Assembly: GCA_964187785.1 (NCBI GenBank)
Contig: OZ076409.1
Location: 28,584,001-28,648,000 of the forward strand
DNA length: 64,000 nucleotides
Reading direction: 5' to 3'
From: Amphiscolops sp. MND2022
Taxonomy: Eukaryota
Position 1 is the stretch's first letter, and each line of letters begins with the position of its first letter. The translations under genes and the position numbers were made by a program. The notes beneath the pieces are model-generated. The model was not told the origin of the DNA, did not search any database, and saw only the letters and a program-made list of their open reading frames with translations. Shown here piece after piece: positions 2,494-60,282 of the stretch.

Positions 2494-2662
2494 AGTAGTA
2501 TACGAATTCCCGATTCGGACCAGTCAAATATATTTTTTAAAAAAAATGTTGATTATTATTTTTTTAAAAGTCAACGTTTTTTTCACAGCTAACTGTTAAA
2601 AAATAACCAAGGCAAACCATCTAAAAATTAGTTATTTTTCACAACGGAAAAATTAACAAAAT
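2494..2662 (+). repeat. Polinton left terminal inverted repeat
   Basis: Reverse complement of 15995-16242, e.g. aactgttaaaaaataaccaaggcaaaccatctaaaa and cgaattcccgattcggaccagtcaaa. Confidence 0.92.
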
Positions 2663-2682
2663 TGATGAAAAATAACTATTAA

Positions 2683-3078
2683 ATGAATTATTTATCATTC
2701 AAAGAATTTGTTAATAACTATGGATTAAAAAATGAAGCAACTTCCAATGTAGAAATAAAAGAAATCCTAAAACTCATGAACACATCTTGTGGAATATATA
2801 TGAGAGATGATAAGTTTACCACTACCAGTGGTATAGTTAACTTACATCCAACTAAAGGAACACATTGGGTTATGTTTACAAACCAAAACTATTTCGATTC
2901 ATATGGCTGTCCACCACCACTAAATATAACAAAACAAATTAATAATGGTATCTATTCAGAATATCAAATCCAGAAAGACGACAGTTATTGTGCAGCTTAT
3001 TGTTTGTATGTGTTATAACTCACAAATATAATTGGTTTCAAAAATGCAGTTTTAAACTTATATTATCAAACTTTATGA
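2683..3078 (+). pseudogene. Adenain-like (clan CE) maturation cysteine protease (Polinton PRO), with a probable premature stop at 3016-3018
   Basis: GTHWV (His), YFDSYG (Asp), QIQ..DSYCAAYC (Gln, Cys). After the TAA the frame continues LTNIIGFKNAVLNLYYQTL to a TGA at 3078. Confidence 0.85.
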
Positions 3079-3085
3079 ATAATAA

Positions 3086-3226
3086 ATGAAGAAAATTAAT
3101 AATTATTCAGCTCAATTTAAGATTATTCAAAAACCAATGAATACCAATGAGAATCAATTTGATGAGAAAGTAATAGAAAAAAATAATCCAAAAAAAAATT
3201 ATCAAAACAAAACCAAGAATTTATAA
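3086..3226 (+). CDS. Small hypothetical Polinton ORF (46 aa, possibly frameshifted in an A-run)
   Basis: The ATG lies in a TAAATG context like the other genes and the ORF fills the PRO-mCP gap; MKKINNYSAQFKIIQKP... Confidence 0.4.
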   Translation: MKKINNYSAQFKIIQKPMNTNENQFDEKVIEKNNPKKNYQNKTKNL

Positions 3227-3270
3227 ATAAGATATCCGCAAGTGGATTTAAACAATTTTTCTCCTAATAA

Positions 3271-4317
3271 ATGGATCTATCAAATTTTGTAACCTATGAT
3301 AAAAAAGAATCTCTTTTATTGAGTATTGCAAAATCTAATTTGGATATTGTTGAAAATACCTTATGCAAACCACAAGAAACTTTAGAATTTAAAATGAATA
3401 AACAAAAAGAATCTTTTTCATTTGATATTCCACTAGACTTACCTGAACAATGGATGATGGGAGTAACAAGTTTAGAAAATTATAATACAGTTTATAACAT
3501 TGCTGAGAAGAACAATAAATTTAAACTTCTTTATACAGAAAAAATGTTAAAAGAAAATGATGTTGACACTCAATTAATAACAAATGTTGAGTATTTATAT
3601 AAAACCTCTGGTGATATAGAAAAAATTAAAAAACTTATAGTTAATGATAATGCTGAAATTAAGACTATTACTAAAACAGATTATGATTATTTGATGAAAA
3701 TAATTGATCAAATTAATCAATTTACCGAAGGTGCTTTGCACATTAAAGATAAACCAATTGTTATTTCTGGAATTGGATCTGTAACTGATTCCATTGAAAT
3801 AGAACTACCACCAGGAGCATATGAATTAGTTGATATAAATAATACCATCCAGCAAGAACTTATTAAATGTTGTACTTTACCTGGTGGTAGTTCTGACCTT
3901 AAACTCAACATAGAAGCAGATACAATATCAATGAAATCAGTTTTAACAACTGCTAGTGGTATATATTTTAATTCAGAATTAAATAAACTTTTAGGGTTTA
4001 CAAACAAGGAATATCCAGCAGGAACACATATTTCAGAAAAACCAGTTATGATAACAACGACAGACAAAGTTCATCTTAAATGTGATTGTGTAGATGGTTC
4101 AATTGTTAATGGCATACGAGAACAAATTTTATTTTCTTTTAATCTTAGTGCTCCTCCCGGATATAAAATTATAAAAGAACCCAATATTATTTTGTATAAA
4201 AAAATAAACAAAACAAGGTTAGATAGTATTCAATTTTTCCTTGAGGATAACAATGATAACCCAGTTGATTTCAACTCTGAAACATTAACATTTACAAATC
4301 AAATCATCAAGATTTAA
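3271..4317 (+). CDS. Minor capsid (penton, single jelly-roll) protein
   Basis: N-terminal FDIPLDLPEQWMMGVTSL.NYN.VYNI and C-terminal HLKCDCVDGSIVNG...PPGYKI..EP..ILYKKI...LDSI.FFLED....VDFNSE patterns typical of Polinton/PLV pentons. Confidence 0.8.
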   Translation: MDLSNFVTYDKKESLLLSIAKSNLDIVENTLCKPQETLEFKMNKQKESFSFDIPLDLPEQWMMGVTSLENYNTVYNIAEKNNKFKLLYTEKMLKENDVDTQLITNVEYLYKTSGDIEKIKKLIVNDNAEIKTITKTDYDYLMKIIDQINQFTEGALHIKDKPIVISGIGSVTDSIEIELPPGAYELVDINNTIQQELIKCCTLPGGSSDLKLNIEADTISMKSVLTTASGIYFNSELNKLLGFTNKEYPAGTHISEKPVMITTTDKVHLKCDCVDGSIVNGIREQILFSFNLSAPPGYKIIKEPNIILYKKINKTRLDSIQFFLEDNNDNPVDFNSETLTFTNQIIKI

Positions 4318-4329
4318 TCTTAATAAATA

Positions 4330-4744
4330 ATGAGCATTAATCTTAAATAATAATAAATTTAAAAATAATTCATATTGTGTTGGTGGAAAACATTATTCCG
4401 CTACCATAAATATTCGTGGAGATATTACTCAAAATAAAAAAACAGGAGCACCTGTTAAATTATTAAGAGGTACTTGTTCAACTTGCAAAAGAAATAAATC
4501 ACTTATAGTATCTGATCAAACTATACAAGCAGAAGGATTAGGTGACTTTTTCCGAGGTATAGGAAAAGCCGCCAAGAATGTCGGAAAAAAAATTTTAAAC
4601 AATCCTGGAAGAGCATTAGAACTCGCAGCTAATATCGGTACTGCAGCAGCAAGTAAAAATCCCCGAGTGATAGCAGCAACTCCTCCTGATATTATAAAAT
4701 TTGTTCATCAAGGAAAAGGCCTGTACTTGGGTAAAATTCATTGA
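4330..4744 (+). pseudogene. Zn-ribbon plus amphipathic-helix protein (candidate virion core or membrane-lytic protein); start codon out of frame and absent from the ORF track
   Basis: Open frame 4334-4744: NSYCVGGKH...LLRGTCSTCKRNKS...QAEGLGDFFRGIGKAAKNVGKKILNNPGRAL...HQGKGLYLGKIH*. The ATG at 4330 is one frame off, next to a local ttaatctta duplication. Confidence 0.75.
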
Positions 4745-4793
4745 TTTACAGCCGAGCTGTAAATTAAATATTATTTTTTATGAATAATAAATT

Positions 4794-5748
4794 ATGTATT
4801 CAATTCATAATCGAGAGGATTTAGAGAAATTAAAAAAATTGCAAGAAACAAAATCTTCTTTGAAAGCTGAAAGATTAAAAGAGAAACTAGGGAAGCAAGA
4901 TTTTCATTACGATATGGAAGAAGTTTTTGAACCCGTAACAGAAAAACAGAAACAACATTTCTAAACAACAAGAATTTTCCGAAAAACAAATACAAGCACT
5001 ACAAGATTCGACTCAAACTACAACACAAGCAATACAAGACCAAACTAGAGCAATACAAGACTCGAGTAATACTCCTAATAAAAAATTACATAAATCAGTT
5101 AAAGAAGGAATACAAGAATATGATAAAATTACAAATCGTAATAATCAAATTGTTACAGATCTTGTTAACTCAAACCAAGTTGATTCTAGTATCGTTAAGA
5201 CAGTTTCTAATTTGCTTAATGACAACAACAAAAGTCAATTTAGTTTAGAACCCGTGGAAGGAAGTTCCAATTTATTCACAATTAACCCTCATAATCCCCA
5301 ACAAGTACTAATCAAAGGTTCAACGATGATTTTCCCGAATGGTAAGACGTACTATTTAAATGATCCGGATCTTTCATATTTTATAACGAATACACACTTC
5401 GATAATCTATCACAAAATAGCAAAATAATTTACAGTTTTTTAAATGATATGAAATATAATATAAATTATGGAGATAAAAAATCACATAGATATTATTTTA
5501 TTAAAGCTATGTTACAACCACAAATAGGAAGTGGATTAAATTTTGTTTTTCTTCCATCTGATCCAGATGAGCTTGTAGATCAAATAAAACTACTTTATTT
5601 TGAAAAAGTAGGAGGAAATGATAATCCTATGCTTAGTGAACAAATCATAGCAATTGCAGATAAACTTTTACAATACCAATGTATTACAACAAATCAACAT
5701 CAAAACCTAGTAAGCACTTTTACTAAAAAGGATCAGTTTGTGGATTAA
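4794..5748 (+). pseudogene. Polinton protein of unknown function (coiled-coil N-terminus, LPSDPxELxD C-terminus), frameshifted near 4955
   Basis: MYSIHNREDLEKLKKLQE...EEVFEPVTEKQ continues in the +1 frame (SKQQEFSEKQIQALQD...) into track ORF 5212-5748, ending QIGSGLNFVFLPSDPDELVDQIKLL..EK.GGNDN. Confidence 0.7.
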
Positions 5749-6702
5749 ATATCTGGTATTGCAGATTGGATTCATTACATATCATATACTTACTCCCATT
5801 TTTACCTTCTAACCTATTTATTAATAAATAATTATACTCATCCCGCCATGCTTCTCTGCATAAACTTTTGAATTCATCATTGGACATATCAAAACCTGCT
5901 ATGTCTCTATAAATGTGTTCAACATTTTCAATGTTTGTCGAAAAAAAATTATAATATTACTATTGTTTCTAATTGTTCTTTTAGGTAAATCAAAATATGA
6001 CTGTGATAAATAATAAACATCCAGATCATTAGGTCTTCTCCTAGTAAAAAATGGGTCTATTAATTTCTGATTGGAGTCTAACATATCATCAAATACAACA
6101 CAACAATTTTGAATATCTTGAATACTTTTATCACCTAAATCTTCTTCCACTGAAACATCTTCTATTTCAATTTTATTGTATTGTTCCGGACTCCTTGTAA
6201 TAATATGAATTTTCCTTGTATTATCATCCAATCGAATTAACTGTAATTTGTTTAATAACAAATGGGTCTTACCACAAAATGATGGGCCAACTATCAATGT
6301 CCTATTACAATTATTTTCAATTTGATTATTATTATCATCAATTTGATTATTATGATTTTCATTATTATCATCAATTTGATTATTATCAATTTGATTATTA
6401 TCATCATCAATTTGATTTTCATTACCATCATCAATTTGAATATTATTTAAAAAATATACATCTTCTAATAATTTAATACATCTTTTTAAATGTTTTGATA
6501 AATAGATTTTATTTAATTCTTTATTACAGAATTCACATTTTACTTTTTTATTGAAACATTCTATACATGTACTATACAATTTACCATTTCTATATTTGTA
6601 AAAATCTGTTTTCAATATAATACATTCTTTACATCTTTTTTTATTCTCACAATCGAAGCAGACAGATTTTTCATTACTTTTTCCACAAATTAAACACTTC
6701 AT
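5723..6702 (-). pseudogene. A32/FtsK-like packaging ATPase 1 with an N-terminal CxxC-rich region and NQIDD repeats; 1-nt frameshift near 5925
   Basis: Walker A GPSFCGKT, Walker B VVFDDM, degraded Arg-finger motif (RRP for GRH), LSQSYF..PK.TIRNN. After the frameshift it continues VEHIYRDIAGFDMS.DEFK.LC..AW.....L.IN to a TAG at 5723-5725. Confidence 0.85.
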
Positions 6703-6722
6703 TTATTTAGTAAAAAATCACT

Positions 6723-6820
6723 AAATCACTAAGCAAATTCACTAAGAGCACATCTTCTTAAGTGTAGCCTTATTTGCTTAGTGAAAAAAATATGCTCTTA
6801 GTGAATTTACTTAGTGATTT
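6723..6820. other. Intergenic inverted repeat (28-bp arms, 1 mismatch) built from CACTAAG units
   Basis: aaatcactaagcaaattcactaagagca (6723-6750) pairs with tgctcttagtgaatttacttagtgattt (6793-6820); further ACTAAG units extend to ~6840. Confidence 0.85.
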
Positions 6821-6855
6821 TACTAAGAAAATTACTAAGAAATCAGACCCATTTT

Positions 6856-7867
6856 TTAATTACTTTTACTAAACCTAATTGCTTGATCAATTATAATTTC
6901 CTTAAATTCCTCTTTAAGTTGATCTGAAATTAATGGTTGTTGCATGCGTTCAACGTAGTTGTCTATTTTAGATTCATTCACTTTTATTTTATTTTGTTTA
7001 CAATAATATACATAATAATAAGCTACATTAAAAGGTGTTATTTCAATTGTTTGATCTGACATATCTTCTAGGAATATTTTAAGTTTATTAAATTCTTCAC
7101 CTGTAAAGAAATAACTTTCATATTTTACATAATCTTCAGGACTCCATTTATGTTTAGTTGTATCGTAGATTAGTTGGTACTTTTGATTGAGTATTTTATA
7201 CTTTTGTGATCTAGTATCAAATTCATTTACACCAAATTCTAACTGACTACGATATTGTTTCCATTTAAGATCTTCTTTGATTGAATAAGTTTGTATTATG
7301 GTTTCAAAGAAACTATCTGGATTATTTATTGTGATATATAATTTAAAACAATTCTCTCTCACTATTGGGAGAACATCCTTTGCATAGTGAGCAAGGTATA
7401 TAACTTGTAAATTATTGTGTCTACCAAACCGAAATAAGTCTTCTACTTTTGTTTTAAGTTGCTTATAAGCACCCGCATCGTCTAAAATTATCGTTCTATT
7501 CGCAAGTGATTCAATTTCTATTTTTTTCTAACTGCAACAAAGGTATATAATTATCATTAAACTCAGTCTCATCTCTACCGAATACTATAAAACTTGTTTT
7601 AGTTTGATCCAAATAATACCTAAGGAAATTAGTCTTACCTGATCCACTAGTACCATAAATTAACATATGGCAATTTGTATTTGTGTTTGGTGGAGTAAGT
7701 TCTTGTTCTTCTTCTTTGTTAGTTAAATGAGATTTTTTAAATCCCTTGAATTGTTTTAGTTTTTGGTATAATTTTTCGTAATGTCTAGGTCTAATATAAT
7801 ACCAATAAATATATAAAACTGTAATAAAGATTACACATAATAAACCTATATATAATTTTTTATTCAT
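6856..7867 (-). pseudogene. A32/FtsK-like packaging ATPase 2 with an N-terminal transmembrane helix; 1-nt frameshift in a homopolymer at ~7521-7527
   Basis: Joins track ORFs 7511-7867 and 6856-7362: LYIGLLCVIFITVLYIYWYY (TM), HMLIYGTSGSGKT (Walker A), then TIILDDAG (Walker B), LFRFGRHNNLQVIYLAH (Arg finger and sensor) and PIVREN. Confidence 0.85.
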
Positions 7868-7881
7868 TTATTAGGAAATAA

Positions 7882-8739
7882 ATGAATGAAAAGAAAGAAA
7901 TTGTTAAAGAAATATTCTCTCCTGTAATCAAGAAGTTTCAAAGAATTCAAATACAAACTCACTATAAAGATGAGTGTTGGAGTATTGATCTGATAGACAG
8001 GTCTAGCTTAGCAAAATACAACAAAAACTACAAGTTTATTTTTACAATAATTGACAATCATACTAAATATGCATGGGCGATTCCTCTTAAAGATAAATCA
8101 GGAAGAAGTACAACAAATGCATTTAAAAGTCTTATCGAAAAAACAAAAAGAAAACCGGATAAAATATGGTCAGATAGAGGTAAAGAGTTTTATAACAAAA
8201 CATTTTTGGATTTCCTACAAGAACAAAACATTCATATTTATTCAACTAATTCAGATTTAAAAGCTGTTTTTGTTGAACGCTTCAATAGAACATTATTAGA
8301 TCTAATAAAAAAACCAATGTATAATGAAGGTAAAGCTTGTTGGTTGAATCACCTTGATGCTGCTATGGAAAAATGTAATAATCGTGTTCATGGTACAACA
8401 AAAATGACACCATTTGAAATGGTTACCAATACTAATAAAATTATCAATATTAAAATTAATAAAAGTGAAAAAATACCCAAATTTCAAGTGGGAGACTATG
8501 TAAGAGTTCCTGACAAAAGGAACATTTATTCAAAAGGTTATACAACAAATTGGAACAGAGAACTTTTCAAAATACACAAAATTAATCCAACTAACCCAGT
8601 TACGTATGGTTTAGTAGATGAAAACAACGAACAAATAGAAGGAAAATTTTATGAACAAGAACTTTTAAGGAGTGTATTCAATTTTAAATCTAACAACAAA
8701 ACGTTAGAAAGTATGAATATTTTCCATCAAAATGAGTAA
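7882..8739 (+). CDS. Retroviral-like (rve) DDE integrase of Polinton type; no C-terminal chromodomain evident
   Basis: WSIDLID, IDNHTKYAW, IWSDRGKEF, VERFNRTL, PKFQVGDYVR, KGYTTNW, G.FYEQEL. Confidence 0.95.
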   Translation: MNEKKEIVKEIFSPVIKKFQRIQIQTHYKDECWSIDLIDRSSLAKYNKNYKFIFTIIDNHTKYAWAIPLKDKSGRSTTNAFKSLIEKTKRKPDKIWSDRGKEFYNKTFLDFLQEQNIHIYSTNSDLKAVFVERFNRTLLDLIKKPMYNEGKACWLNHLDAAMEKCNNRVHGTTKMTPFEMVTNTNKIINIKINKSEKIPKFQVGDYVRVPDKRNIYSKGYTTNWNRELFKIHKINPTNPVTYGLVDENNEQIEGKFYEQELLRSVFNFKSNNKTLESMNIFHQNE

Positions 8740-8756
8740 ATGTATTTAAATAAATA

Positions 8757-9458
8757 ATGTCAATTCATAAATTTGGTTATAGTGCCGAGAGTCTACAAAA
8801 AGATAAGATTGAGAATTTAGAAAAAAAATTCGAATCACAAACCAAATTGTTTAATATAAAACTTATTAATATTTCTGACAAATTAGAAAACTCTGAAAAC
8901 CTACAAAGTGTACAAGAAATTAATTTTGATGATGGTGAAACCAAGGTAGTAGTCAATGCAAAGTTATTCTTAGACATAAATAAAAATATAGAAGACTTGA
9001 AAATCAACCTGAAATACTTAGAACAAGATGTTAAAAATAAAGTTTTAGAAAAGAAAAAAGAAATAATTTTGGATGCTGCCAAGTTATTGGAAGAACAACA
9101 AACCATTTTACGTAATCATTTTGAGAAAAACCTTATTTTGGAATTGGAAAAATGTAAAAATCAAACTGTCAAAGATGTTATACAACTATTGTACAACAAA
9201 GGATTGTTTGACTCATTTGAAAATAAAGACCAAATCTTTAATGAGTACTTATATTTTAGTGATGAATACTTGTTGGAAAAATACGGAAAAGAAATAAAGA
9301 CATCAGATGGTGTGTATTATTTATCTGATTTAGACTATTCAACGCGAGAAGATATTTTGAAGTGCTTAAAAATAGATGAATACAAAGATATTGTTGACCT
9401 TAAATATAGAATGAAACTAACCGATACTGAGATAACTTTCATACTTTTTGAAGAGTGA
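8757..9458 (+). CDS. Hypothetical Polinton protein (233 aa, coiled-coil-like)
   Basis: Intact ORF between the integrase and the membrane protein; TAAATAATG start context; no recognisable motif. Confidence 0.65.
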   Translation: MSIHKFGYSAESLQKDKIENLEKKFESQTKLFNIKLINISDKLENSENLQSVQEINFDDGETKVVVNAKLFLDINKNIEDLKINLKYLEQDVKNKVLEKKKEIILDAAKLLEEQQTILRNHFEKNLILELEKCKNQTVKDVIQLLYNKGLFDSFENKDQIFNEYLYFSDEYLLEKYGKEIKTSDGVYYLSDLDYSTREDILKCLKIDEYKDIVDLKYRMKLTDTEITFILFEE

Positions 9459-9492
9459 ATACTTGTAAAATTAAGTTTTTATTTAAAATTAA

Positions 9493-10009
9493 ATGAGTGA
9501 AAAATTGTATCCTTGTTTAGGTGAATCAGATAATCTTGATCTTAGATGGAAAGAAATAAATAGTTTTAATAATTCAATTCAAAATATAAAAGATATTCAA
9601 AATTTTTATAATCATGAAGCTAAAAAGTATAAAAAGAAATCTAAAATATATAAAATTATCAACAGTTTAATTCAATCTATTGATGGAGTTTCAGTACTAG
9701 CAGTATCATCAACATGTGTCACGTTGAGTGTCACAGGAGTTGGACTTGTTGTTGTACCTATAGCAAGTGGTATAGGTGCAGGTTTATGTATAATCAGTAA
9801 AATTGCTGGAGAGTACCTGAAAAGAACAACATATTATTAAAAAATATACTCTTGCTGGTAGAACACTACATGATTTCTGTAAACTACATTCAAAATGTTT
9901 AGAAGACAATAAAATTGATCTGAATGAATACAACAAATTAAAACAAACATACGATGTGTATAAAAACAATAAAACTAAACTAAATTCTGAGTTTAATTTT
10001 TTAGGATAA
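9493..10009 (+). pseudogene. Polinton predicted membrane protein (Gly-rich hydrophobic hairpin), frameshifted near 9822
   Basis: LYP...KKYKK...VSVLAVSSTCVTLSVTGVGLVVVPIASGIGAGLCII; continues in another frame as KEQHIIKKYTLA..TL......SKCLEDNKIDLNEY..L...YD.YK to a TAA at 10009. Confidence 0.7.
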
Positions 10010-10119
10010 ATTTATTTAGTAAAAATAATATAAATATAAATTTGAAATCATCATCATGAATATTTATTCTTTTACAAACCGAAGATTTGTAGAAAAAATG
10101 AATATTTTTTTCTATATAA

Positions 10120-11349
10120 ATGGAATTATTTTCTTTGAAAAATAAATATGTTATGGATAAACCTATTCATAAAATTGATTTTATTAAATACTCACCTAGT
10201 AGTTTAGCTACAATCAACAATAATAATTCAAATATTTCCATCATCTTCCCAAGAGAAGATGCATATTTTTGTTTACAAAACTCATACATATCATTAGAAT
10301 TTGAAGTTCTTAAAAATGATGATACAAGATATGCAGATGGTGATCAAATAAGTTTAGTTAATTTTGGACCCGTTGCTTTATTTAGTGAAGCTAAGTTAAC
10401 TACTAGTTCGGGCAAGCATTTAGAAAAAGTTGATAACCTACACCCAATTTCTTTGATGCATAAACTTTTAACATCTAATCAACAAACAAGTCAATTGATG
10501 TACGGATTTGAAGAATCACAAGCAACTAGAAGACAAGAACTAACAACAAACAAAACAGAAAAAGGAACCTTTTTTGTTAGAATTAGGTTGAGTGATATAT
10601 TTGGATTTGCTGATCAAGAAAAAATAACTTATGGATTGGGTTATACTCTTACTTTAAAACGAAATAATAATAATGATCCTATCATCAGGGACAATGGTGT
10701 AGATGCTGCAAAAATAAATATAAAAGACATCTCCTGGTATATTCCACACTATGTTCCTAGCTTAGAAAACCAGCAACTCGTGATGGATCAAATATTAGAC
10801 AAAGATCCAACTGAATTATATTACATGGAACGAGTTGTTTTTAGAAAAGATGTTAACACGAATAATAATTGGACATTTGAATTAGGTAATAGTGGAGAAT
10901 CAACACCAACTTTTGTAATTGTTGCTTTTCAAGCTAGAAATAAAATTGATTCACAAACACATGATAATGCAATATTTGATCGTTTACCTGTTTCAAATGC
11001 TGTTTGTAAAATAGGATCAGAGAAATATCCCGATGATGGAATAGAATGTGATTATGATAGAGACAAATATGACCAAGCATACAGTGAAATTGAAAACTTC
11101 TATTTGTTAAAAAGTGAAACTAACCTACTCAATCCGTTTATTGATTTGCATAAATTCAGGACAAATTATAATTTCTATGTATTTGATTTATCCAAACAAA
11201 AAGACCCCATCGGGAGTCAACCTACTAGATTAGAATTCAAATTTAATGCTGCTATTGATGTAGCAGACTATATAGCTTATGCCCTAGTCCTAACACCTAA
11301 ACTGATAAGTATCAGTAGTGATGGACGAAGGCATTTTGATTTATTATGA
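10120..11349 (+). CDS. Major capsid protein (double jelly-roll)
   Basis: 409 aa with SYISLEF, ALFSEAKL, IRLSDIFGF, ISWYIPHYVPS, PTFVIVAFQ, KYP and FYVFDLS patterns of Polinton DJR MCPs; adjacent to pPolB. Confidence 0.85.
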   Translation: MELFSLKNKYVMDKPIHKIDFIKYSPSSLATINNNNSNISIIFPREDAYFCLQNSYISLEFEVLKNDDTRYADGDQISLVNFGPVALFSEAKLTTSSGKHLEKVDNLHPISLMHKLLTSNQQTSQLMYGFEESQATRRQELTTNKTEKGTFFVRIRLSDIFGFADQEKITYGLGYTLTLKRNNNNDPIIRDNGVDAAKINIKDISWYIPHYVPSLENQQLVMDQILDKDPTELYYMERVVFRKDVNTNNNWTFELGNSGESTPTFVIVAFQARNKIDSQTHDNAIFDRLPVSNAVCKIGSEKYPDDGIECDYDRDKYDQAYSEIENFYLLKSETNLLNPFIDLHKFRTNYNFYVFDLSKQKDPIGSQPTRLEFKFNAAIDVADYIAYALVLTPKLISISSDGRRHFDLL

Positions 11350-11447
11350 ATAAATATAATTTAAATATATAATAATACAGCTTTGCTGATATGATAAATA
11401 AATTTATTTTTATAAATAATAATAATTATAAAATAAGATATTTATTT

Positions 11448-14400
11448 TTATAAAACATGTGCTCGATCACTTATCAACTTCACAAGTTGTTGAAGGGTGA
11501 GTGCTTGTTTCCAATACCAAACACTCCAATATATTTCTTCATCTGTTTTCTTGCTACCGTCAACATTTATAGTTAAATCTTTATAATACAAACCAAATAA
11601 TTTCAAACAATAGATACAAGGGCAATCACTTTTTTGTGTGTGTTTATCCCATGGTAAACTTTGTATTGGATTTATACACAAACGTTTATCGTCAAAAGGA
11701 TTCAAACACAACTTAGGTAGTTTTTCAACTGTGAGGTTGTGTAAATTAGATCTAATTGATATATTTGTAGAACTTGATGTTTCTGAATTAAACAATGAAT
11801 TTTGATATTCTTCACATTTAGGAGCTTTTTGTATTCCTCTTTGTTTCGCTTTTTGAGTGATACCGGAGGCGCATTGCGTACCATTCGGATTATTATAACT
11901 AAAAGAATATGACTTTGATCGCAATGCTGTGAAGGTATCTAACACCAAAACTGGACTTGTTTCAATTTTCATTTTCCCTATGACTTTTTTGTTAATAGGA
12001 TCATATAATTCATCACTTGGGTCTAATTCACTGAAATCAAATTCATCTTGGTTTTCTTGTAAAAAGTTTATTAGTTCTTGGTGGTTTGTATCAAAACTCA
12101 GAATAAAACTATCAGTGTCCATGTAGTGTAGTTGTATGGATTGTTTCCAATATGGTTGTAATTTGTTATAATAAAATTCATACATTAACAACTTGCTCAG
12201 TTCTAGTACTGTAAAACCTAAATAAATTGGTTTATCAAAGACTGTTTTTTCTTTATCAAACTTGTACACGCTAAATTTAGAATAATGATCCATGATTCCT
12301 TTGAAACTTAACTTGGATTGTCTTTTTATTATTTGATCTATTTGAGAATGATCAATGATATCTAGATTGGTTCTATCTCTTACATTTTCCATCGTCTTGC
12401 CAAAGAAAGCGTTGTTCATTAATTTATAAAGATCCTTTTCAAAGTTTGTTTTCGCTACTGTGCGTTTCTGAGTATTATGATCGATATATTTACCTAACCA
12501 TGGACTTTGTTTAAACTTATAGATAGTATGTATCTTCGTTACTTTCATCCCTTGGTTAAGATAAAACTTAAACATCCTATAATGTATCATATATTTCGAT
12601 TTATTGGTTACATCACACATAAGTTTTGATGTTGGTTTGTAATTAGGTTGATTTATATTATTCATATAACCTGAGAATAAGTTTGGATCTGCTTTTGTTT
12701 GATATGGACAAAAAGGAAATTTTTTTGTTTTTTCTTTAATTTCAGCTGGATATTCTAAGTTACATTCTATAAAGTATCCAAATTCATTGTCATCTGGTGT
12801 ATTGAAAATGTCCTCTTTAATTTCATTCATCAGTACAGAATCATATTCACAACAGAGCTTTATCTTTTTAAAGTCTCCAGTAGGAAGGTATTGACTCATT
12901 GCCAATCCATATAGACTATTTGCATCGATATATAAGATTTGTTTATTTTCATCAGATTGCACATGACGATCTCCCATAACACTTGAAATTCCTCCACGTA
13001 TATTGTTTTCTAAAAGTAATAATAATTCTTTACATTTTATATAATCTAATTTTATATTAGTCAACTTTAATCCTGCTTTCCATGTATAACCAGGTAGAGA
13101 GTAACTATACAAAGGATTAATTTTATATTCTCGTGTAGAACTTTCCACAAAGTTTTCAAATACATCAGCTAATTGTAGAACGTCCATTTTCAAATATAAC
13201 ATTGTTAATTCTCTTCCATTTTTAATTTTAGTTTTATCAATTAATTCTTGGGTTCTTTTTATATCATCATCTGATGGATAAGATTGTGTTAATGTTGACC
13301 AATAATCTTCTTTGGTTAGATTTAATGGTTCCTGAAAGTTATCAAGATTTAAGTATTCATATGGATAAGCTAATTTCTTTTTAAATAAATCATCACTCAT
13401 TCTTTCCAATTTCATGATAGGAAAATTGTCTAAACTCTTAACTAATTTATCTAAACTGGAAGAAAGAAATCGGTATGAATCTAAGAATCTCAAACAACCT
13501 ACTTGTACACTAACATAATTTTCCAGTGATTTTGGAATTATCGTTGGATTATAATTTTGATTGTATGCTTCGGTTAAAAGTTCTTCAAATATAAGATGAC
13601 AATCATACCCAGAAAAGATATGGAAAAATATAGGAACAAAACTTGATGACTTTTGTTTACAATTTATGTTACATATATTATGAGCTGCTCCTCTGTATTT
13701 TCCTGTTAGATGATCATGATCTCTAACTTTTTCACCTTCGAGTGGATTTTCACAAAGCCAACACTCTTCTGCAAGTTGAAATTGTACTTCTTCTCCTTGA
13801 CTCATTTCTAATTCTAAATTTGTTTTAAAATATTTTGATGCAATTTTTTCTAAAGTTAACATTCTATTCACAAACCACGTGGTACAATCTATTCCAAAGT
13901 ATGAATAGTAATAATTTCCGAATGGTGAAATTACATAATATCCTACTGCAATTGGAATTTGTTTGAATAACACGTTGGGGGTATTTTGAGGTTGATTGAT
14001 ACATTCAAAATCTGCATATACTCTTATTGGTACAGGAACTTTCATATAATAATCTTCGAACTTTAACTGATCCTTCCAACTGAATGTGATATTAGTTGGT
14101 TGTTGATTTATACATCTTTCCATATGATCAATAAGAACTGGTTGTGAACTAAATGCTGTTAAACATCTTCTACATACATGTTTCATATGTGAATCTTTAT
14201 TTATTAGACAATGCAACCTTGTTATTAGACAATAGTGATTTTGATATAGTAATAAATCTATTTGTGGTTGTAAGTAATTTTTATTAACGTGGATTGGTGT
14301 TAAAACATTTCCAGTGAGTTCAAATACATTTATAGTTAAATTAATTAGGTTTTCGAACTTGGGAATATCTTTAACTTTCATAGGGAACTCTAATCCTTTC

Positions 14401-15233
14401 AGGTTGAGTTTATTTAAATGAATAATATATTTTGATATTCTATCTTTATGATTCTCAACTGGATATAACTGGGCTAAAATACACCATAAAAAACAATATT
14501 GATCATTATTCTTTATATTTATGATTGATTTATTATCCTTATATTTTCCTGGTAATTCAATATATGATGAAGCTTGAATATCATTAACTTTATATATTTC
14601 TAAAAAAACTTCTTCTATTTCTTGAAACACAAAACCTGATCCTTCTAATTGTTCATCATCTAATTTCTGCATTAATGTGTTATGAGTATCTTGTTGTGTA
14701 CCGAAGGTGCTTTGCATGTGATTATACGTTAGATCTGATTTTATCCATCTTTTAAATACTTCTTCTTCTCCATTGACTATTTTTGAAAATTTAGCTAGAT
14801 AACTCAATTGATATTTATATCGGGGAAAATAATTTTTACTAAGTAATTCATTTATATGATCTTCGAGATTACTAGTTGGATTTATTTTAAGTTTAATGTA
14901 TGTATTTTCATTCATAATTTTTTCTACTCCATTACCGAAATTTTGCATGTTTTCCCGTTGACGGTTTTGTAAATGAATTTCACTTTGGAAATGTCTTGTT
15001 GTATCAGATATATATTTACTACAATCTTCACACCAAACACGTCGTTGTTCGGTTTTATTTTTATGTTCATCTGAACTTAAATGAGAAATTTTATCTGAGA
15101 TAGGCATATATAAATTACATTTTTCACAATAATATTGATCTAATTTTTCAAGATGTTTTACTGTTTTTAAATGATCAGACTTGAAAACTTTTTTATAATT
15201 TAAATTACAAATACTACAATTCTCCATTTCCAT
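11448..15233 (-). CDS. Protein-primed family B DNA polymerase with N-terminal C2H2 zinc fingers and an inserted EndoVII/HNH-like module
   Basis: Exonuclease motifs YADFE, H.FSGYD, FLDS, YPYEY, YLKMDV; polymerase motifs YIDANSLYG, KLMNNAFFGK, YMDTDS; C..C...VRDHDHLTGKYRGAAH..CN insert; three CxxC...H.....H fingers at the N-terminus. Confidence 0.96.
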   Translation of the reverse strand: MEMENCSICNLNYKKVFKSDHLKTVKHLEKLDQYYCEKCNLYMPISDKISHLSSDEHKNKTEQRRVWCEDCSKYISDTTRHFQSEIHLQNRQRENMQNFGNGVEKIMNENTYIKLKINPTSNLEDHINELLSKNYFPRYKYQLSYLAKFSKIVNGEEEVFKRWIKSDLTYNHMQSTFGTQQDTHNTLMQKLDDEQLEGSGFVFQEIEEVFLEIYKVNDIQASSYIELPGKYKDNKSIINIKNNDQYCFLWCILAQLYPVENHKDRISKYIIHLNKLNLKGLEFPMKVKDIPKFENLINLTINVFELTGNVLTPIHVNKNYLQPQIDLLLYQNHYCLITRLHCLINKDSHMKHVCRRCLTAFSSQPVLIDHMERCINQQPTNITFSWKDQLKFEDYYMKVPVPIRVYADFECINQPQNTPNVLFKQIPIAVGYYVISPFGNYYYSYFGIDCTTWFVNRMLTLEKIASKYFKTNLELEMSQGEEVQFQLAEECWLCENPLEGEKVRDHDHLTGKYRGAAHNICNINCKQKSSSFVPIFFHIFSGYDCHLIFEELLTEAYNQNYNPTIIPKSLENYVSVQVGCLRFLDSYRFLSSSLDKLVKSLDNFPIMKLERMSDDLFKKKLAYPYEYLNLDNFQEPLNLTKEDYWSTLTQSYPSDDDIKRTQELIDKTKIKNGRELTMLYLKMDVLQLADVFENFVESSTREYKINPLYSYSLPGYTWKAGLKLTNIKLDYIKCKELLLLLENNIRGGISSVMGDRHVQSDENKQILYIDANSLYGLAMSQYLPTGDFKKIKLCCEYDSVLMNEIKEDIFNTPDDNEFGYFIECNLEYPAEIKEKTKKFPFCPYQTKADPNLFSGYMNNINQPNYKPTSKLMCDVTNKSKYMIHYRMFKFYLNQGMKVTKIHTIYKFKQSPWLGKYIDHNTQKRTVAKTNFEKDLYKLMNNAFFGKTMENVRDRTNLDIIDHSQIDQIIKRQSKLSFKGIMDHYSKFSVYKFDKEKTVFDKPIYLGFTVLELSKLLMYEFYYNKLQPYWKQSIQLHYMDTDSFILSFDTNHQELINFLQENQDEFDFSELDPSDELYDPINKKVIGKMKIETSPVLVLDTFTALRSKSYSFSYNNPNGTQCASGITQKAKQRGIQKAPKCEEYQNSLFNSETSSSTNISIRSNLHNLTVEKLPKLCLNPFDDKRLCINPIQSLPWDKHTQKSDCPCIYCLKLFGLYYKDLTINVDGSKKTDEEIYWSVWYWKQALTLQQLVKLISDRAHVL

Positions 15234-15994
15234 TTATTAAAGAAAAAATAGTTTAATTAAAAATTTTTCAATAATAATTTTTCAAAAAATTGGTGAAAAA
15301 ATAATTTAATTTTGTGGGTTCAATAAAATTTTCTACTTGTAAAATGTGTGTCTTGTTATTGTCTATAACTTTGTTCTCCTGTATCATTGCGCTGCGATAA
15401 ATCATTTTCGAGAAAATTGAGAAAAACCCAATTTTTACACCTGTTTTTATAGGTGGTAATTAGTGGGTTGATTTTAGAGAAAACATTCAGTGACAAAATT
15501 TGTGTAACTTTTAATTATCTACAACTTTTATTTCTGTGAATTTTGTCTAAAATTATTTCCCGTTGAGATATTAGGCAAACTATCTTTTCCCATGTATTAA
15601 GATTAGGTATAATTCACAAGAACTAGAACAACTTCATGGTTGCAAGAAGGAGCCAAAAAAATGTCAGCGATAAAAGTTTTTGCCAAAAAGTTTGTCACTG
15701 AAAAAATTTTTTGCCAAAATTTTTGCCAGGCTGGCACGAATTCTGGCAAATTTGCTTTGATGTTTCTTTCATGTTTCTCGAGTGTGAAATGTCAATTTGT
15801 CTGCATTGCACACTTCACTGCAAAAATGAATTGAATTGCACATGTTACACTTTTAAACCAACGTTGCTGTAATTCATTCCAAAAAATTTTTGCTTCACAA
15901 ATTTTCTCTATTACCATCCACGGCAACATAGAGGTTAGTGATTTTTTGCTTCAAGACAAAGTTTTCCACTGGAAAAATTTGTTCATTGATTTTT

Positions 15995-16242
15995 ATTTTG
16001 GTAATTTTTCAGTTGTGAAAAATAACTAATTTTAGATGGTTTGCCTTGGTTATTTTTTAACAGTTAGTTGTGAAAAAAACGTTGATTTTTTTTAAAAAAA
16101 AATTAATTAACATTTGTTTTAAAAAAATTTTTGACTGGTCCGAATTCCCGATTCGTTTGGTATTCATAATTTTTAAAAAAATAATCAACATTTTTTTTAA
16201 AAAAAAAAAATTTGACTGGTCCGAATCGGGAATTCGTATACT
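15995..16242 (-). repeat. Polinton right TIR with an internal partial duplication
   Basis: Reverse complement of the left TIR; the block ...ttgactggtccgaat occurs twice (16131 and 16212). Confidence 0.92.
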
Positions 16243-17182
16243 CACAGACAGTTTTTGTTTTCGATCTTGCTAGGTCCCCTTAAGAGCGTTTAGAGCCGGT
16301 GCGACAATTTTTTGAAAACAAATTTTCCAAAATTCATTTCTTGGCAAGTTTGGCTTTTTAAACCTTTTCCGTTAAGGATAAGCGTTTTTCGAGCCTAGAA
16401 GCCTATTGTTTTTTTCGCTCACTGCGACTTTCAAAAACTGGGTCATGAAAACGTCAAAGTGGGCCCCACTTTGCTTCAATTTGTTTTCAGATCTGAAGAG
16501 TTATTCCAATACTTACTCTACTCGAATCTGACGAGAAGTTTTCAATGTGGCATCCTCGCATGCTTTTTAGGTTTTTGATGAACATAAAAATCACTGAAAG
16601 GACGCATAAAAAACTTTTGAAAAACCTCCATTCAACTTGCAAAATTCTCTAAACAGATCCATGCACATTTGAGAAAAAAGATCCCTGCAGTCTACAACAT
16701 GTATGGAAAAAATCCTAGCAATTTTAACGAAAAAGTTTTTTTAAAGTTCGAGAAAAGGGCTAAAAAGGCCGTCTTTAGACCTTTCAAAATTTATTTCTCA
16801 CGTGATCTGTCATGTCAAAGGAACGCATGAATTGCCCTTGGTCTTAAATTACATAAAAACACTTATCCGTCACTAAATGAAAACAACGCAAAAAAATCAT
16901 CGAAAATACAAAAATTGTTTGGGAACAGTTCCGGGCTCAACAAAAATGAAATGTTGAGATCTCAATGAGTTTTAAACATACTGACAGCTTGTTCCTGACA
17001 GCCGACTTTCTTCTTCGAATTCAAATTTCGAAAAAAAATAAATGTTTTATCATAAAAAATGACGAAAATTAATAATTCGCAAGCAATTCGAACAGAAATG
17101 CTCACTGAAGCCTATAATAATTTTGTCATCAAAATATCAGCTTTTGTTATGGATTGTTGATATTCCGCTCTCAAAGTGGTTC

Positions 17183-47581: not shown

Positions 47582-47890
47582 GACAATTCGGATTTTTTGT
47601 TCATTTTTGGAGTTTTTCACTTCTCAAATTTCCAAGAAAGGTTAAAATGCTTTTTCTTTTTACTGAAAGTATTTTTGAGCAAAGAATCTGTTGGCTAACA
47701 TTGAATTCTTTCCACATGTTTTAGTATACGACAAATACACTTTGTAAACAACTTGTGGAAAGAATTCAATGTTAGCCAACAGATTCTTTGCTCAAAAATA
47801 CTTTCAGGAAAAACGGTACTGCATTTTCACCTTTCTTGGAAATTTGAGAAGTAAAAAACTCCAAAAAATGAACAAAAAATCCGAATTGTC
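47582..47890. repeat. Foldback/MITE-like inverted repeat with ~135-bp arms
   Basis: gacaattcggattttttgttcatt...gaattctttccaca mirrored by tgtggaaagaattc...aatgaacaaaaaatccgaattgtc. Confidence 0.9.
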
Positions 47891-50046: not shown

Positions 50047-53000
50047 TCACTGCGAGTAAGAAGTGTTCACACTTCCAATCAGCTGATCGGCCACCTGTGC
50101 CGCACAGTTTAGACCACTAAGAAGAGCCCCATGTGCAGATGCAGGGTAATTTCTACTGGTGTGCTCACCCGCGAAAAACAAATTGCACTTTCCTGACCTC
50201 AATCCTGAAACAGAACAAACATGCCTTGTTCAAAAATATACAGGCACTAATTACATAGCGATTATTGCAAAGGACGAGTTCAAGAGCTTCTTTAGATGAT
50301 GTTCACACGTTTATGCGGCCTGAAAACCACTTTTTGAGCAAACCGAAAAATGAATATTTCTCCCGAATTATAGCCGTGTTTACTATTCTTTGTGGGATTC
50401 AACTAGAATAAACTGAATTTGCGCCATGCCGTGAAAAGCCATTGGCATATCTGAGCACAGTATATTGGCTTTCAAAACTCTAACCTGAAACCGGTTTTGC
50501 AATGGCATCATAATCGTCGCCAGAGGCTCCAATGGCCACGTAGGAGTATGCACCACATGCATACATGTCATCGCGCCACCTAGTCACTATTTTCTCCTTT
50601 AGACGACTCATCGTGTCGGGGTACAACGTTCTCAGACATGTGAGACATCTCTGCACTATACTGTCGTCGTCGAGTTCGTCCATTATGACAGTGGATTCGC
50701 CCGCTATCAGAGCCAAGAGCACGGGGGCGTCCCAAAGACTGTTGAAGAGGAAACACTCTCCGCGAGCAGCGCTGTGGGAGTTGACAAAGCCAAACATGTG
50801 AGTTGAGGAGTCCCAGAACTTCTTCTCAAAACATAGAACAACTTTCATGAGGTTGCCGAAACCCAGTCTGTCGATGGCCGACAGTTTCCAGTCGGGGAGT
50901 TCTGGGTTGAAGTAGATCAGAGGTGGCTCTTCTTTTAGCACCCCTAAAGGAACACTGACCACAACTGCATCTGCTCGGTATTCCTCCTTTCCGGAACCTG
51001 AATCAGCCAACAGTTGAAAACAAACTTACTTAACCTTACCGGGAAAAAGCCAATAAATTTCCTTCAGGGTTGGTTTTAAAAACTTATAAAAAATACTTTT
51101 AAAAGTTTAAAACGTTTCACAACAGTTTTGAAAGAGTGTTTAAGAGCACAGAAATGAATTAAAATTACGGCAACAAACATCAGAACTCGAAACCGAAGTC
51201 AGCAATCGGATACAAAATGACTGCTCTCAAACTTTTCTTCAAGTTCATTCAGAATTTGTAAACATTTTGTCTTCTCGCCTTCCCATAAGTTGAAATTTAT
51301 TGCTATCAGCGTTTAAGATTGCATCTCAGGTTAAACATAACGAAATGATAGTTTCCTTCACTTCAATACAAAATACTTGAGAACAGATTTTTACACAACT
51401 TAGCTTCTTGATCAGTTCCATCCGACCAGCTCTGAGCTAAGTTTGTGAACTAACCAGAGTCACTGTCGTCCAAGTCGATATCCATAGCGTGTTGAGAAGA
51501 TGCATCGCGTTTGGAAACACCTTTGCCAGTGACATCTACACACGAAACAGAGACCGAAGAAGCACTGTAGTCAATGCTGCGAACACACTTCTTGAACTTG
51601 ACATCCAGGCCAGTCGCAAGGTTGTCAGTTATCGTTCCGAGTCCCGACTGAATCGAGTAGTGGTCTCCAGGCATCTCGAAATGATCATCTAGGCAACGTC
51701 ACAATGCTGCTAGTTTCAAATTGTATTTTTGATAATTCTTAACGCCAATAGCAGCATTATAAAACTATGCATAAAACATAACCCCTGAAATAGTCAAAGA
51801 AAATGCATGATAAGACGGTTATATATTTTTTTCACTAATTCTTATCCTCAAAAGAAGTTGAATGTCAAGATTGGTTTCAAATCATTTCGTAAGCAATAGT
51901 CGAAAAACTTCAGAGGAATTGAAAGTTTGTTGAATAAAATTTCGAAACTGGATCATCGTCGTCACAAAAACAGATGAGCTAAATAAGTTTTCCTCGACCG
52001 ATCAAGACAAATGGACTGTTATTCAATACGAATTCAAGAGCTTCATACATAATTGCATTCAGTTCACGAATCAAGAAGTACATGTATGTTACTAACCCTG
52101 ATCCCATTGACTGAGAGATAGTGTGTTGAGAGGAGTGGCGTTGGCGAATTCAAGATTGGCCACATGCCAGTCTAAGATATTGCGATCTTCAGTGGACAGA
52201 TAAGTATCGATAGGAACATCGTCCTTGATATCATCAAACTTCCCCTGCAGATTTTTGATTTCTTTGATCACGTTCCGGTACTTTGTGATTAGGTCTTGAC
52301 TGTTATGCACAGCTGACTTGAATTGGAACTCCTCAATCACATTTCTGGTGCTCTTGTTTTCGTATTTCTTAACCACCGATTTCGACTGTTCTACGTTCTG
52401 ATACAACGCTTGGGCTTCTAAAGAGCGGTCTCGGATCTCTTTCTGGAGATTGACGAGGTTTTGGAAGAACTTTTCTTTCTTTTTTAACAAAGTCTGTTCC
52501 TGATGCATGATTATCAATTCAATAGTCTGACCCAGGGACACCGGTCTTCCGGGAATGGTCTCCACAAACCCCAGTTGAGCAGCTGCGTATCTGGATGCAT
52601 CCAGAAGCCTATTGAACTCTTCCTCGATCACAGCGTCCTTTTCCTTGGGTACTTCTTGACCGAGATGATTGTACAACTTGCAGGAATTTTTGATTCTTCG
52701 GAAAGGAATGTTGAACTGATGTGCCAACATGGAAAATGGGTTACCTACAATGAAATTTACAAATACTGCAGAAAATTCATATAATTATCGGTGATAGAAT
52801 TTTTGATTAACAAGGTTGATTATCTTTTAATTTAAAAAACGGAAAAGAACTTTTATTTTGCCAAAAATAAAATATTTGGCAAAATAAAAGTTCACTGCTG
52901 GTAATTTTGTACTAATGTGCAGAGCTGGAATGACAAATATAGCAAGTTCATACTTTCCAATTTAATTCTGAAAAATTCATGAATATATCGAATTTTGCCA

Positions 53001-60114: not shown

Positions 60115-60282
60115 GCTATATTCAGTTAATTTCATGATTTGACTACGGCTGTAATCGAACGCAAATAAAAATGTGCCTGTGTGGTAGTGGCCAGTAGGTT
60201 ACTGGTCACTATCACATAGGCACATTTTTATTTGCCGTTCGATTACAGCCGTAGTCAAATCATGAAAATAACTGAATATAGC
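60115..60282. repeat. Hairpin-forming inverted repeat with ~82-bp arms and a 3-nt loop
   Basis: gctatattcagtta...gtggccagta ggt tactggtcac...taactgaatatagc. Confidence 0.92.

Follow-up and report, generated by a model that had tools for sequence, protein, structure and literature searches.

Mavirus and the EMALEs of Cafeteria, Sputnik/Zamilon, Gezel-14T (PgVV) and the Tetraselmis PLVs are integrating elements with a double jelly-roll (DJR) capsid, as is the element described here. In the mavirus, Sputnik, Gezel-14T and Tetraselmis PLV systems, the promoters match those of the helper, and type-specific motifs serve to infer the helper. These systems differ from the present element in their protist hosts, their Mimiviridae helpers (TCTA, AAAATTGA and the Megamimivirinae late motif) and their capsid lineage.

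Animal elements physically tied to poxviruses have also been described. The polinton-like viruses AHEV_PLV1/2 and CBEV_PLV1 were found in entomopoxvirus occlusion bodies, and two of them were placed beside the mavpol 2 capsid clade with PF21738 as the top HHpred match (PMC11296320). Their capsids are highly diverged, no report of an RVE integrase was found for them, and the main text of that paper mentions neither promoters nor TAAAT. Bellas and Sommaruga leave these elements ungrouped. Their match to PF21738 is only weak, and this holds for each of the two capsid lineages among them.

The group 2 Maverick-Polintons (Polintoviricetes) share pPolB, RVE integrase, A32 ATPase, DJR capsid, terminal inverted repeats (TIRs) and a 6-bp target-site duplication (TSD) with the present element, together with a variable replication module. 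In the group 2 (mavpol 2) comparison, the capsid matched PF21738 and was unrelated to the capsid of family B, a classical Maverick family of the same genome. Relatives here carry the phospholipase domain that is said to be common among group 2 elements. The literature found describes no promoter or helper dependence for group 2, and our literature searches returned no report of TAAAT(G)-type initiators for Polintons.

The poxvirus late promoter (TAAAT(G/A) in vaccinia) resembles the signal reported here: TAAAT overlaps the start codon, G or A comes next and a T-rich core lies upstream. The same type of start motif is seen in the TAAA of vaccinia intermediate promoters and the TAAATG of salmon gill poxvirus. 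Poxviruses are not alone in having TAAA-type initiators, since TAAAN occurs in yeast virus-like elements and TAAAT in some ranavirus polymerase promoters. The yeast cytoplasmic elements pGKL1/2 are linear and protein-primed; they initiate at TAAAN, form A-leaders by slippage and have stem-loops at their 3' ends (PMC6211774). They differ in that a partner element provides their polymerase; the genome studied here yielded no additional polymerase subunit. To our knowledge, they have neither capsid nor integrase.

Structure and genes of the element

The window, which is the whole 64,000-nucleotide stretch analysed, contains a whole Polinton/Maverick of family A1. The Polinton hallmarks are present: family B polymerase, RVE integrase, DJR capsid, A32-type ATPase, TIRs and a 6-bp TSD, CACAGA, on both flanks (2488-2493 and 16243-16248). 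The features are as follows.

2494..16242, no strand: whole Polinton/Maverick, family A1, 13,749 bp, 27% GC
2494..2662, + strand: left TIR, starting AGTAGT
2680..3018, + strand: TAAATG (2680-2685) and putative protease of adenovirus type, 111 aa (most other copies 130-131 aa)
3083..3226, + strand: TAAATG (3083-3088) and small conserved ORF, 46 aa
3268..4317, + strand: TAAATG (3268-3273) and putative penton, a 348-aa ORF
4324..4744, + strand: TAAATAATG (4324-4332) and broken gene; the pattern of its N-terminal cysteines aligns with the DUF5679 proteins of relatives
4788..5748, + strand: TAAATTATG (4788-4796) and conserved gene in two pieces (4794-4964, 4939-5748)
5899..6705, - strand: TAAATG (6705-6700) and zinc-finger/P-loop protein, shortened in the window copy
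6703..6855, - strand: long hairpin in the gap between the stop of the A32 ATPase and the following start, z -9.8
6856..7870, - strand: TAAATG (7870-7865) and A32-type packaging ATPase in two pieces (7511-7867, 6856-7527)
7857..7892, no strand: back-to-back initiators of ATPase and integrase, ATGs 14 nt apart, palindrome
7879..8739, + strand: TAAATG (7879-7884) and retroviral-type integrase, 285 aa, rve E 3e-12
8751..9458, + strand: TAAATAATG (8751-8759) and 233-aa protein, function not known
9490..9840, + strand: TAAATG (9490-9495) and conserved protein with hydrophobic segment, 115 aa (147-180 aa elsewhere)
10117..11349, + strand: T7-tract, TAAATG (10117-10122) and DJR major capsid protein, 409 aa
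11448..15236, - strand: TAAATG (15236-15231) and protein-primed-type family B DNA polymerase, 1261 aa
15995..16242, - strand: right TIR with internal tandem partial duplication, tip one AGT unit shorter

From His/Cys motifs picked out by eye, we tentatively take the ORF at 2683 to be an adenovirus-type protease; it had zero Pfam matches, and the ORF of a relative matches Peptidase_C5 slightly below the cut-off. The putative penton, labelled by inference, has a homologue in families A2 and C. One ATPase piece matches Pox_A32 above the cut-off (Pfam, E 2.8e-5). The capsid protein matches PF21738 (E 2.6e-21), and its predicted model (pLDDT 87) matches the folds of the iridovirus, mavirus, PBCV-1 and Sputnik capsids. 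The best viral match in the fold search was a Cotesia bracovirus protein, which is presumably Maverick-derived. Over some 1000 aa, the window polymerase shares 29-32% identity with polymerases that PF03175 retrieved; the Pfam search gave no direct match between it and PF03175.

Both ends and the TSD were recovered in 7 of the 9 elements examined. Broken genes were present in all 11 copies compared, and 6 of the 12 genes of the window copy are broken or shortened.

The start motif in the window and in related families

As the preliminary description had stated, 9 of the 12 starts are exactly TAAATG (2683, 3086, 3271, 6702-, 7867-, 7882, 9493, 10120 and 15233-), and the remaining three have TAAATAATG (4330 and 8757) or TAAATTATG (4794). 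TAAAT lies within 12 nt of all 12 starts and is followed by G or A in 11. The ATG at 4330 opens just six codons in the window copy, where the frame is broken, and exact TAAATG stands there in five other copies. Similarly, the A2 orthologues of the gene at 4794 and of the 233-aa protein at 8757 start with exact TAAATG. At the polymerase start, TAAATAG stands in place of TAAATG in 7 of the 9 other copies and the next ATG follows two codons later, so that TAAAT is kept without the ATG.

TAA precedes 24 of the 466 other ATGs of the element (Fisher p 2e-9) and 39 of 1533 ATGs in the rest of the window. When the 30-nt upstream regions of these 12 starts were shuffled, the mean was 0.96 exact matches, and none of 20,000 shuffles reached 9. 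The same 12 N-termini were found again in other copies, which supports the starts, and the family starts were re-derived by homology with the motif not consulted.

The families of the same genome were counted over genes of at least 100 aa with homology-supported N-termini. Exact TAAATG was found at 9/12 starts in A1, 11/14 in A2 and 10/14 in C (shuffle nulls 0.72-0.98), and at 0/19 in the classical Mavericks (families B/X). In unfiltered clusters the counts were 9/16, 12/20, 15/20 and 0/29, respectively. TAAAT(G) was also absent at the starts of four host histone genes, the host comparison set. These comparisons with internal ATGs and with other starts left the promoter reading of the preliminary description standing. 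The family C capsid is 44% identical to that of the window, no match between the family C and window polymerases was obtained by tblastn, and the family B capsid was unrelated to the window-type capsid by BLASTP. The motif is conserved across families with unrelated replication genes.

Among 34 aligned starts, a T-rich tract lies 6-11 nt upstream, with T in 25, 26, 23, 20 and 24 starts at positions -11 to -7. In 17 starts, four consecutive T end 4-10 nt upstream; after TAAA comes T in 32 starts, with G next in 31. The upstream regions of 31 orthologous pairs are 80-83% identical at -14/-13 and 83-87% at -3 to -1, against 22-54% at most other positions. A poxvirus late promoter has TAAAT with G or A at the start and a T-rich core 5-7 nt upstream; here T peaks at -11 to -6, and the layout agrees with the description for vaccinia (PMC5294985). 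The motif very probably acts as a promoter/initiator.

In relatives from other samples, TAAA was found at 13/15 starts in L089 (42% GC, null 4.5), 17/17 in L094 (null 8.4) and 10/14 in metagenome clusters (null 4.8). The motif was present at 9/13 starts in L239 (p 0.057), at 2/9 in L242, an ATPase relative on a piece without capsid, and at 0/9 in L241. The non-redundant external capsid starts gave 6/9 (p 0.09), none with exact TAAATG. The motif marks only part of the capsid lineage. Distant relatives use TAAAA or TAAAC, the motif-ATG spacing varies from 0 to 9 nt, and their A-rich core followed by TAAA resembles the poxvirus intermediate class (redundant set). Strong hairpins stand right after stops in L089 (4/5, p 0.004) and L094 (6/9, p 0.0006); in A1 such gene-end hairpins are only partly present, and A2 and C lack them. 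We know of no such hairpins as a poxvirus late feature. Relatives carry DUF5679, which is reported in PMC11131425 as homologous to poxvirus AMEV120.

Candidate readers of the probable promoter

Other viral signals were searched at 67 starts of the window-element lineage. The Megamimivirinae late motif was found at 0/67 and AAAATTGA at 1/67, and of the TCTA, AAAATTGA and Megamimivirinae late motifs, none of those tested was enriched. As a positive control, two elements of another capsid type match the Megamimivirinae motif in 6/11 and 5/10 genes; L239 has it in 2/13. These counts speak against a Mimiviridae-dependent virophage or PLV. An asfarvirus- or baculovirus-type late promoter would carry TATATA or A/G/T-TAAG. 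The raw counts of 4/67 for TATATA and 10/67 for TAAG speak against this type as well.

The motif is on nearly all element genes and absent from ordinary relatives in the same genome, so the element is likely transcribed by an enzyme that a co-infecting large DNA virus supplies. Reading in trans by a viral polymerase is probable. Our main reading, with a probability of about 0.55, is that TAAAT(G) and the T-rich tract form a late-type promoter borrowed from a cytoplasmic pox-type helper, a large DNA virus, and not a host Pol II promoter. A helper from the poxvirus branch specifically is a tentative assignment, less likely than not. The pox-type polymerase proposed in the preliminary description gained partial support: the poxvirus late layout fits better than the other signals tested, and some lineage members lack the motif. 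The short gaps, the lack of introns and the missing RNA polymerase gene were seen as described; as support they fall away, because the classical Mavericks of the genome share the gaps and the missing gene along with unbroken ORFs. Several observations count against the helper reading. No run of four T occurs within 30 nt upstream of 14/34 starts, and the late-type signal is present even on the polymerase and integrase genes. The search of the assembly for a helper, which found none, also counts against it, as do the lineage members without the motif, the contexts that read AATAAA or ATTAAA, the gene-end hairpins, the coral polintoviruses expressed with no helper named, the TAAA-type initiators outside poxviruses and the weak PF21738 matches of the entomopoxvirus-associated elements. 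Unlike in the poxvirus late class, the motif stands on all gene classes, and some relatives have 3' hairpins. Unlike in poxviruses, it sits in a 14-kb integrating element without RNA polymerase.

Under the borrowed-promoter reading, the element would integrate by its own integrase and then stay mostly silent. Only when a helper supplied polymerase and late factors would the element be expressed, packaged and replicated by its own polymerase, with mavirus and CroV as the model for helper dependence. Each gene would have a separate promoter of roughly 30 nt. Transcription would start inside AAA, which would leave the T at -3 outside the mRNA, and slippage may add an A-leader supplying the translation context.

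It is rather unlikely that host Pol II, perhaps aided by a factor that the element encodes, reads TAAAT(G) in the nucleus as a compact initiator. On this alternative the signal would be convergent or a relic of a helper-dependent ancestor, and spread would now be helper-free. At least 102 capsid copies in the genome, 92-100% identical with differing TSDs, indicate efficient germ-line spread, and several element proteins have no known function. The search of the assembly found no helper: its three Rpb1, three Rpb2 and four family B polymerase loci are the expected host set (two checked as zeta and epsilon), and the VLTF3 and NCLDV capsid searches gave no match, with controls equally silent. About half of 49 coral polintoviruses, groups pooled, are expressed, with no helper named in the portion of PMC11131425 drawn on here. 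Poly(A) hexamers follow 7/10 genes of the window element; however, most of them belong to the initiator of the gene that follows, in sequence of 88% AT, and L089 has a hexamer after 1/15 genes and has hairpins instead. Against this alternative, nothing similar to the motif stands in the host-type Mavericks or the four histone genes, and two divergent genes share a gap of 14 nt. By the Kozak rule, T at -3 is a poor translation context if it lies in the mRNA. T is found there at 34/40 motif-family starts, against a purine at 12/19 starts in B and 4/4 in histone genes.

TAA-ATG might instead be a translation signal, by in-frame stop-start reinitiation on polycistronic RNA or as an A-rich start context. 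The TAA is in frame with the ATG, and families A and C keep an exact register. We consider this very unlikely, since the TAA is not the stop of the upstream gene, divergent and terminal genes have the motif, TAAAT stays where the ATG shifts, spacing in relatives is 0-9 nt and the upstream T-tract is conserved.

It is highly improbable that the motif is the preceding gene's poly(A) signal abutting the next start codon. AATAAA or ATTAAA is read in 33 of 54 distinct contexts, and tandem genes that lie tens of nt apart are numerous. However, the other 21 contexts read neither, and the motif is present at 2683, 7867, 7882 and 15233, whose genes lack a same-strand upstream neighbour. The motif keeps a constant register with the ATG, cleavage past the hexamer would hit the next gene, and distant relatives have TAAAA or TAAAC.

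Chance from AT-rich composition (79-88% AT upstream) and start picking was refuted, with next to no probability left, by shuffles giving about 1 exact match against 9-11 observed in three families, by starts re-derived without the motif and by the 42% GC relative.

Meaning for animal Polintons

No virions of animal Polintons have been observed, according to bioRxiv 10.64898/2026.06.19.733378. It is conceivable, and on balance doubtful, that a large branch of the animal Maverick/Polintons consists of endogenous virophages whose helpers are poxvirus-like viruses of the cytoplasm. The promoters of this branch would then name the helper, the absence of virions in uninfected animals would be explained, undiscovered invertebrate pox-like viruses would exist, hundreds of copies would form an inherited, infection-triggered antiviral system, and sister branches would have switched to host Pol II. 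An antiviral benefit from the present element is unlikely. A promoter signature that splits Polinton families in one genome would be a cheap predictor, from sequence only, of helper dependence and helper kind. The borrowed-promoter reading predicts a poxvirus-like virus in this host, and it would carry the idea of virophages over from protists to the germ lines of animals.

TAAAT at the gene starts of the window Polinton

The TAAAT signal is real, strong, and restricted to part of the lineage. The Polinton of the window belongs to family A1, and its main features are listed below.

Main features of the window Polinton
2494-16242: complete Polinton, 13,749 bp, 27% GC (surroundings 33-46% GC)
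RVE integrase gene
A32 ATPase gene, split in this copy
Double jelly-roll capsid gene (PF21738; model pLDDT 87)
Family B polymerase gene, 1261 aa
Putative protease gene and putative penton gene

The preliminary description had taken TAAATG at the Polinton starts as the mark of a possible satellite of a pox-like cytoplasmic helper virus. All 12 start contexts claimed for the element were as stated on re-check. TAA precedes only 24 of the 466 other ATGs in the element (p 2e-9). When the 30-nt upstream regions were shuffled, the mean number of exact starts (TAAATG at the start) was 0.96, and nine were reached in 0 of 20,000 shuffles. Within ten other A1 copies, TAAAT is constant while the preceding bases vary (e.g., ATT, TAT, AAT, CT, and TT). 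The gene starting at 4330, broken in the window, has exact TAAATG in five other copies. The polymerase gene retains TAAAT with the ATG lost in 7 of 9 copies. Because TAAAT stays while its neighbors vary and is kept at the polymerase gene without an ATG, the conserved unit is TAAAT rather than the start codon.

The element carries six genes besides those listed, its TIRs open with AGTAGT, and the target CACAGA is duplicated. Six of its 12 genes are broken or shortened, and each of the 10 other copies compared has at least one broken gene. At least 102 scored capsid matches with 92-100% identity, a lower bound for the 1.07-Gb genome, were obtained from 2938 candidates. Tandem histone arrays in this genome suggest that the host is an animal. 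The modeled capsid fold matches the capsids of iridovirus, mavirus, PBCV-1, and Sputnik. No close relative was found in IMG/VR with the window capsid, alignment A2, or P0055 as the query. Protein searches gave no named homologues, and the PDB sequence search and the phage collection search gave no match.

Several repeats were also observed in the window. A tandem partial duplication lies inside the right TIR (16082-16237), whose tip is short of the left end by one AGT unit. The N/Q/I/D-rich linker of the second P-loop protein is encoded by short tandem repeats (6310-6452). Host-side direct repeats of 69 nt and 99% adjoin the insertion site on the left (2230-2430). Long near-perfect inverted repeats at 47582-47890, 52867-53243, and 60115-60282 are probably miniature transposons.

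Families within the same genome

Family searches and 60 sequence stretches of this genome gave four kinds of elements. The A2 capsid is about 83% identical to that of A1, and A2 has 33% GC. Family C (about 30% GC) has a capsid 44% identical to that of A1 and a different polymerase. The classical Mavericks B/X have about 41% GC and a capsid unrelated to that of A1 by BLASTP. The starts were re-derived from N-terminal agreement among the elements, and the motif was not used.

Exact TAAATG by family. The values are clusters with majority exact TAAATG (spurious short ORFs counted); clusters of at least 100 aa with exact TAAATG (shuffle means 0.72-0.98); and TAA before out-of-frame internal ATGs
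A1: 9/16; 9/12; 7/188
A2: 12/20; 11/14; 16/222
C: 15/20; 10/14; 12/212
B/X: 0/29; 0/19; 1/154

The repetition across related copies and families thus held, with TAAATG enriched in A1, A2, and C and found in 0/19 clusters of B/X. T stands at -3 in 34 of 40 A/C genes. A purine takes this position in 12 of 19 B genes and in each of four host histone genes, a small host sample from one repeat unit. A YAG splice acceptor upstream of the start was found in 9/40 A/C versus 8/19 B regions and is uninformative. The short gaps, continuous ORFs, and lack of an RNA polymerase gene had also been offered as support; these features do not discriminate, because B genes share them.

The putative promoter architecture was compared in 34 A/C starts aligned on TAAA, which include orthologues and are not independent. 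T occupies positions -11 to -7 in 20-26 of them. After a looser spacer comes TAAAT (32 starts), with G as the following base in 31. Four consecutive T, ending 4-10 nt upstream, are found in 17 of the 34, and 14 lack any run of four T. Over 31 cross-family pairs, upstream identity is highest at -14/-13 and at -3 to -1 from the ATG. The ATPase and integrase starts of the window are back to back with 14 nt between them, and the complement of each initiator falls within the upstream tract of the other. The reading of TAAAT as a poly(A) signal fails in 21 of 54 contexts and at four genes without an upstream neighbor.

Family C (L061-L065, L069-L073) consists of 16.5-17.3-kb Polintons that have the capsid, the integrase, and the terminal AGTAGTATA in common with family A. 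Their polymerase is unrelated to that of A, one of their genes is of the U-box/DUF4116 type, and almost every gene lies on the same strand. C versus A is a replication-module swap inside one host. Two ORFs join at an A-run in five of five C copies, among them L061 (8330-8607). Since no TAAA precedes the second ORF, it may be either a frameshift product or the latter part of a single gene. In A2 (L035, L039, L043), GC-rich short tandem repeats in N-termini and intergenic gaps bring the GC content to 33% and leave TAAATG undisturbed.

Relatives outside this genome

Two IMG/VR elements, L089 and L094, have 25-28% identical capsids. TAAA lies within 12 nt of the start in 13/15 genes of L089 (42% GC) and 17/17 of L094; exact TAAATG is in neither. 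A third IMG/VR element, L239, has a TAAA-type motif at 9/13 genes (p 0.057). Of 122 loci from a pattern scan, 101 had a capsid match, and in 40 the capsid start was complete; the 21 loci without a capsid match were left out, as was the stretch L095 for the same reason. The 40 complete starts, a redundant set, include 18 exact and 36 near starts (TAAA-type motif within 12 nt upstream). Six of nine non-redundant capsid starts are near, versus 3.65 expected (p 0.09). Gene clusters over 44 of the pattern loci have the motif in 10/14 (p 0.002).

The TAAA motif is not universal in the capsid lineage, because it is found at 0/9 genes in L241, though its capsid matches the lineage profile at E 3e-93, and at 2/9 in L242. 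TATA-like or CAGT-like words, judged by eye, occur in some of their upstream regions, which suggests host Pol II promoters there. In a midpoint-rooted tree with weak support, L241 is a long branch amid elements that bear TAAA. No order of motif gain or loss is claimed because the backbone of this tree is weak.

L092 and L093, polinton-like elements of IMG/VR with a polymerase related to that of the window and other capsids, show no TAAA enrichment. The Megamimivirinae late motif, as defined in the accessible text of PMC11464507, matches 6/11 and 5/10 of their genes. The approach therefore detects helper-type promoters, and these two are candidate Mimiviridae-dependent elements. The same motif matches 0/67 genes in five lineage elements, so Mimiviridae are unlikely helpers of the TAAAT lineage.

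Mimivirus follows a rule of hairpins at gene ends. Strong hairpins directly follow stop codons in 4/5 cases in L089 and 6/9 in L094. These are near-perfect palindromes, several alike within one element (L089 3962-4680 and 10714-10741; L094 3152-15867). Some gene-end hairpins are present in A1, including window 6703-6855 (z -9.8), and strong ones were not found after stops in A2, C, and B. A general rule was thus rejected. The window hairpin is near-perfect with 37-bp arms and ACTAAG-type repeats, separates the stop of the ATPase gene from the start that follows, and may be a terminator or a replication signal.

Proposed helper polymerase and promoter borrowing

From the sequence patterns, we give a probability of about 55% to the reading that TAAAT(G) is a late-type promoter of the element genes, which would be read in trans by the RNA polymerase of a cytoplasmic large DNA virus of the poxvirus kind. 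In the accessible text of PMC5294985, the vaccinia late promoter is a T-containing core, 5-7 bp, and TAAAT(G/A), and the intermediate promoter is a core plus TAAA. Slippage produces A-leaders at TAAAT in vaccinia and at TAAAN in yeast virus-like elements (PMC6211774, in part), and a fish poxvirus uses TAAATG (PMC4542343, in part). DUF5679 is present in relatives, and the 4330 gene aligns with it; the available part of PMC11131425 describes DUF5679 as homologous to poxvirus AMEV120. Entomopoxvirus occlusion bodies contain polinton-like elements, two of which are placed beside mavpol 2 (PMC11296320, in part).

The main rival, that host Pol II reads the motif, is considered rather unlikely. In its support, the element has spread widely in the germ line, and about half of 49 coral polintoviruses are reported as expressed (PMC11131425).

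For the poxvirus-kind polymerase, the helper identity is the weakest step, because starts of the TAAA type are also known from yeast elements and from ranavirus polymerase promoters (PMC5294985, in part). Egoviruses are another pox-related helper candidate, and pacmanvirus uses different motifs. In the assembly, Rpb1 and Rpb2 are each represented by three loci and family B polymerases by four, the set expected of the host. Searches of the assembly for VLTF3 and NCLDV capsid gave no match, and their controls were silent too. The absence of helper genes neither supports nor refutes the mechanism, because a cytoplasmic virus need leave none. The host polymerases zeta and epsilon (L236, L237) are unusually intron-poor; the open frames in which they lie are very long, at 1996 and 1876 codons.

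Promoter sharing has precedents in the accessible parts of the literature. Shared promoters decide which endogenous virophages are reactivated by CroV (PMC10945749, PMC8547959), Gezel-14T has an early motif in common with its helper (bioRxiv 2022.07.28.501842), and Tetraselmis PLVs are awakened by a giant virus. The accessible literature, mostly outside subscription papers and including PMC4028283, yielded no description of animal Mavericks with TAAAT at gene starts or with promoters of a helper type. The words promoter and TAAAT are absent from the main text of the entomopoxvirus element paper (PMC11296320). If the mechanism holds, it would be virophage-style promoter borrowing in the new setting of Polintons.
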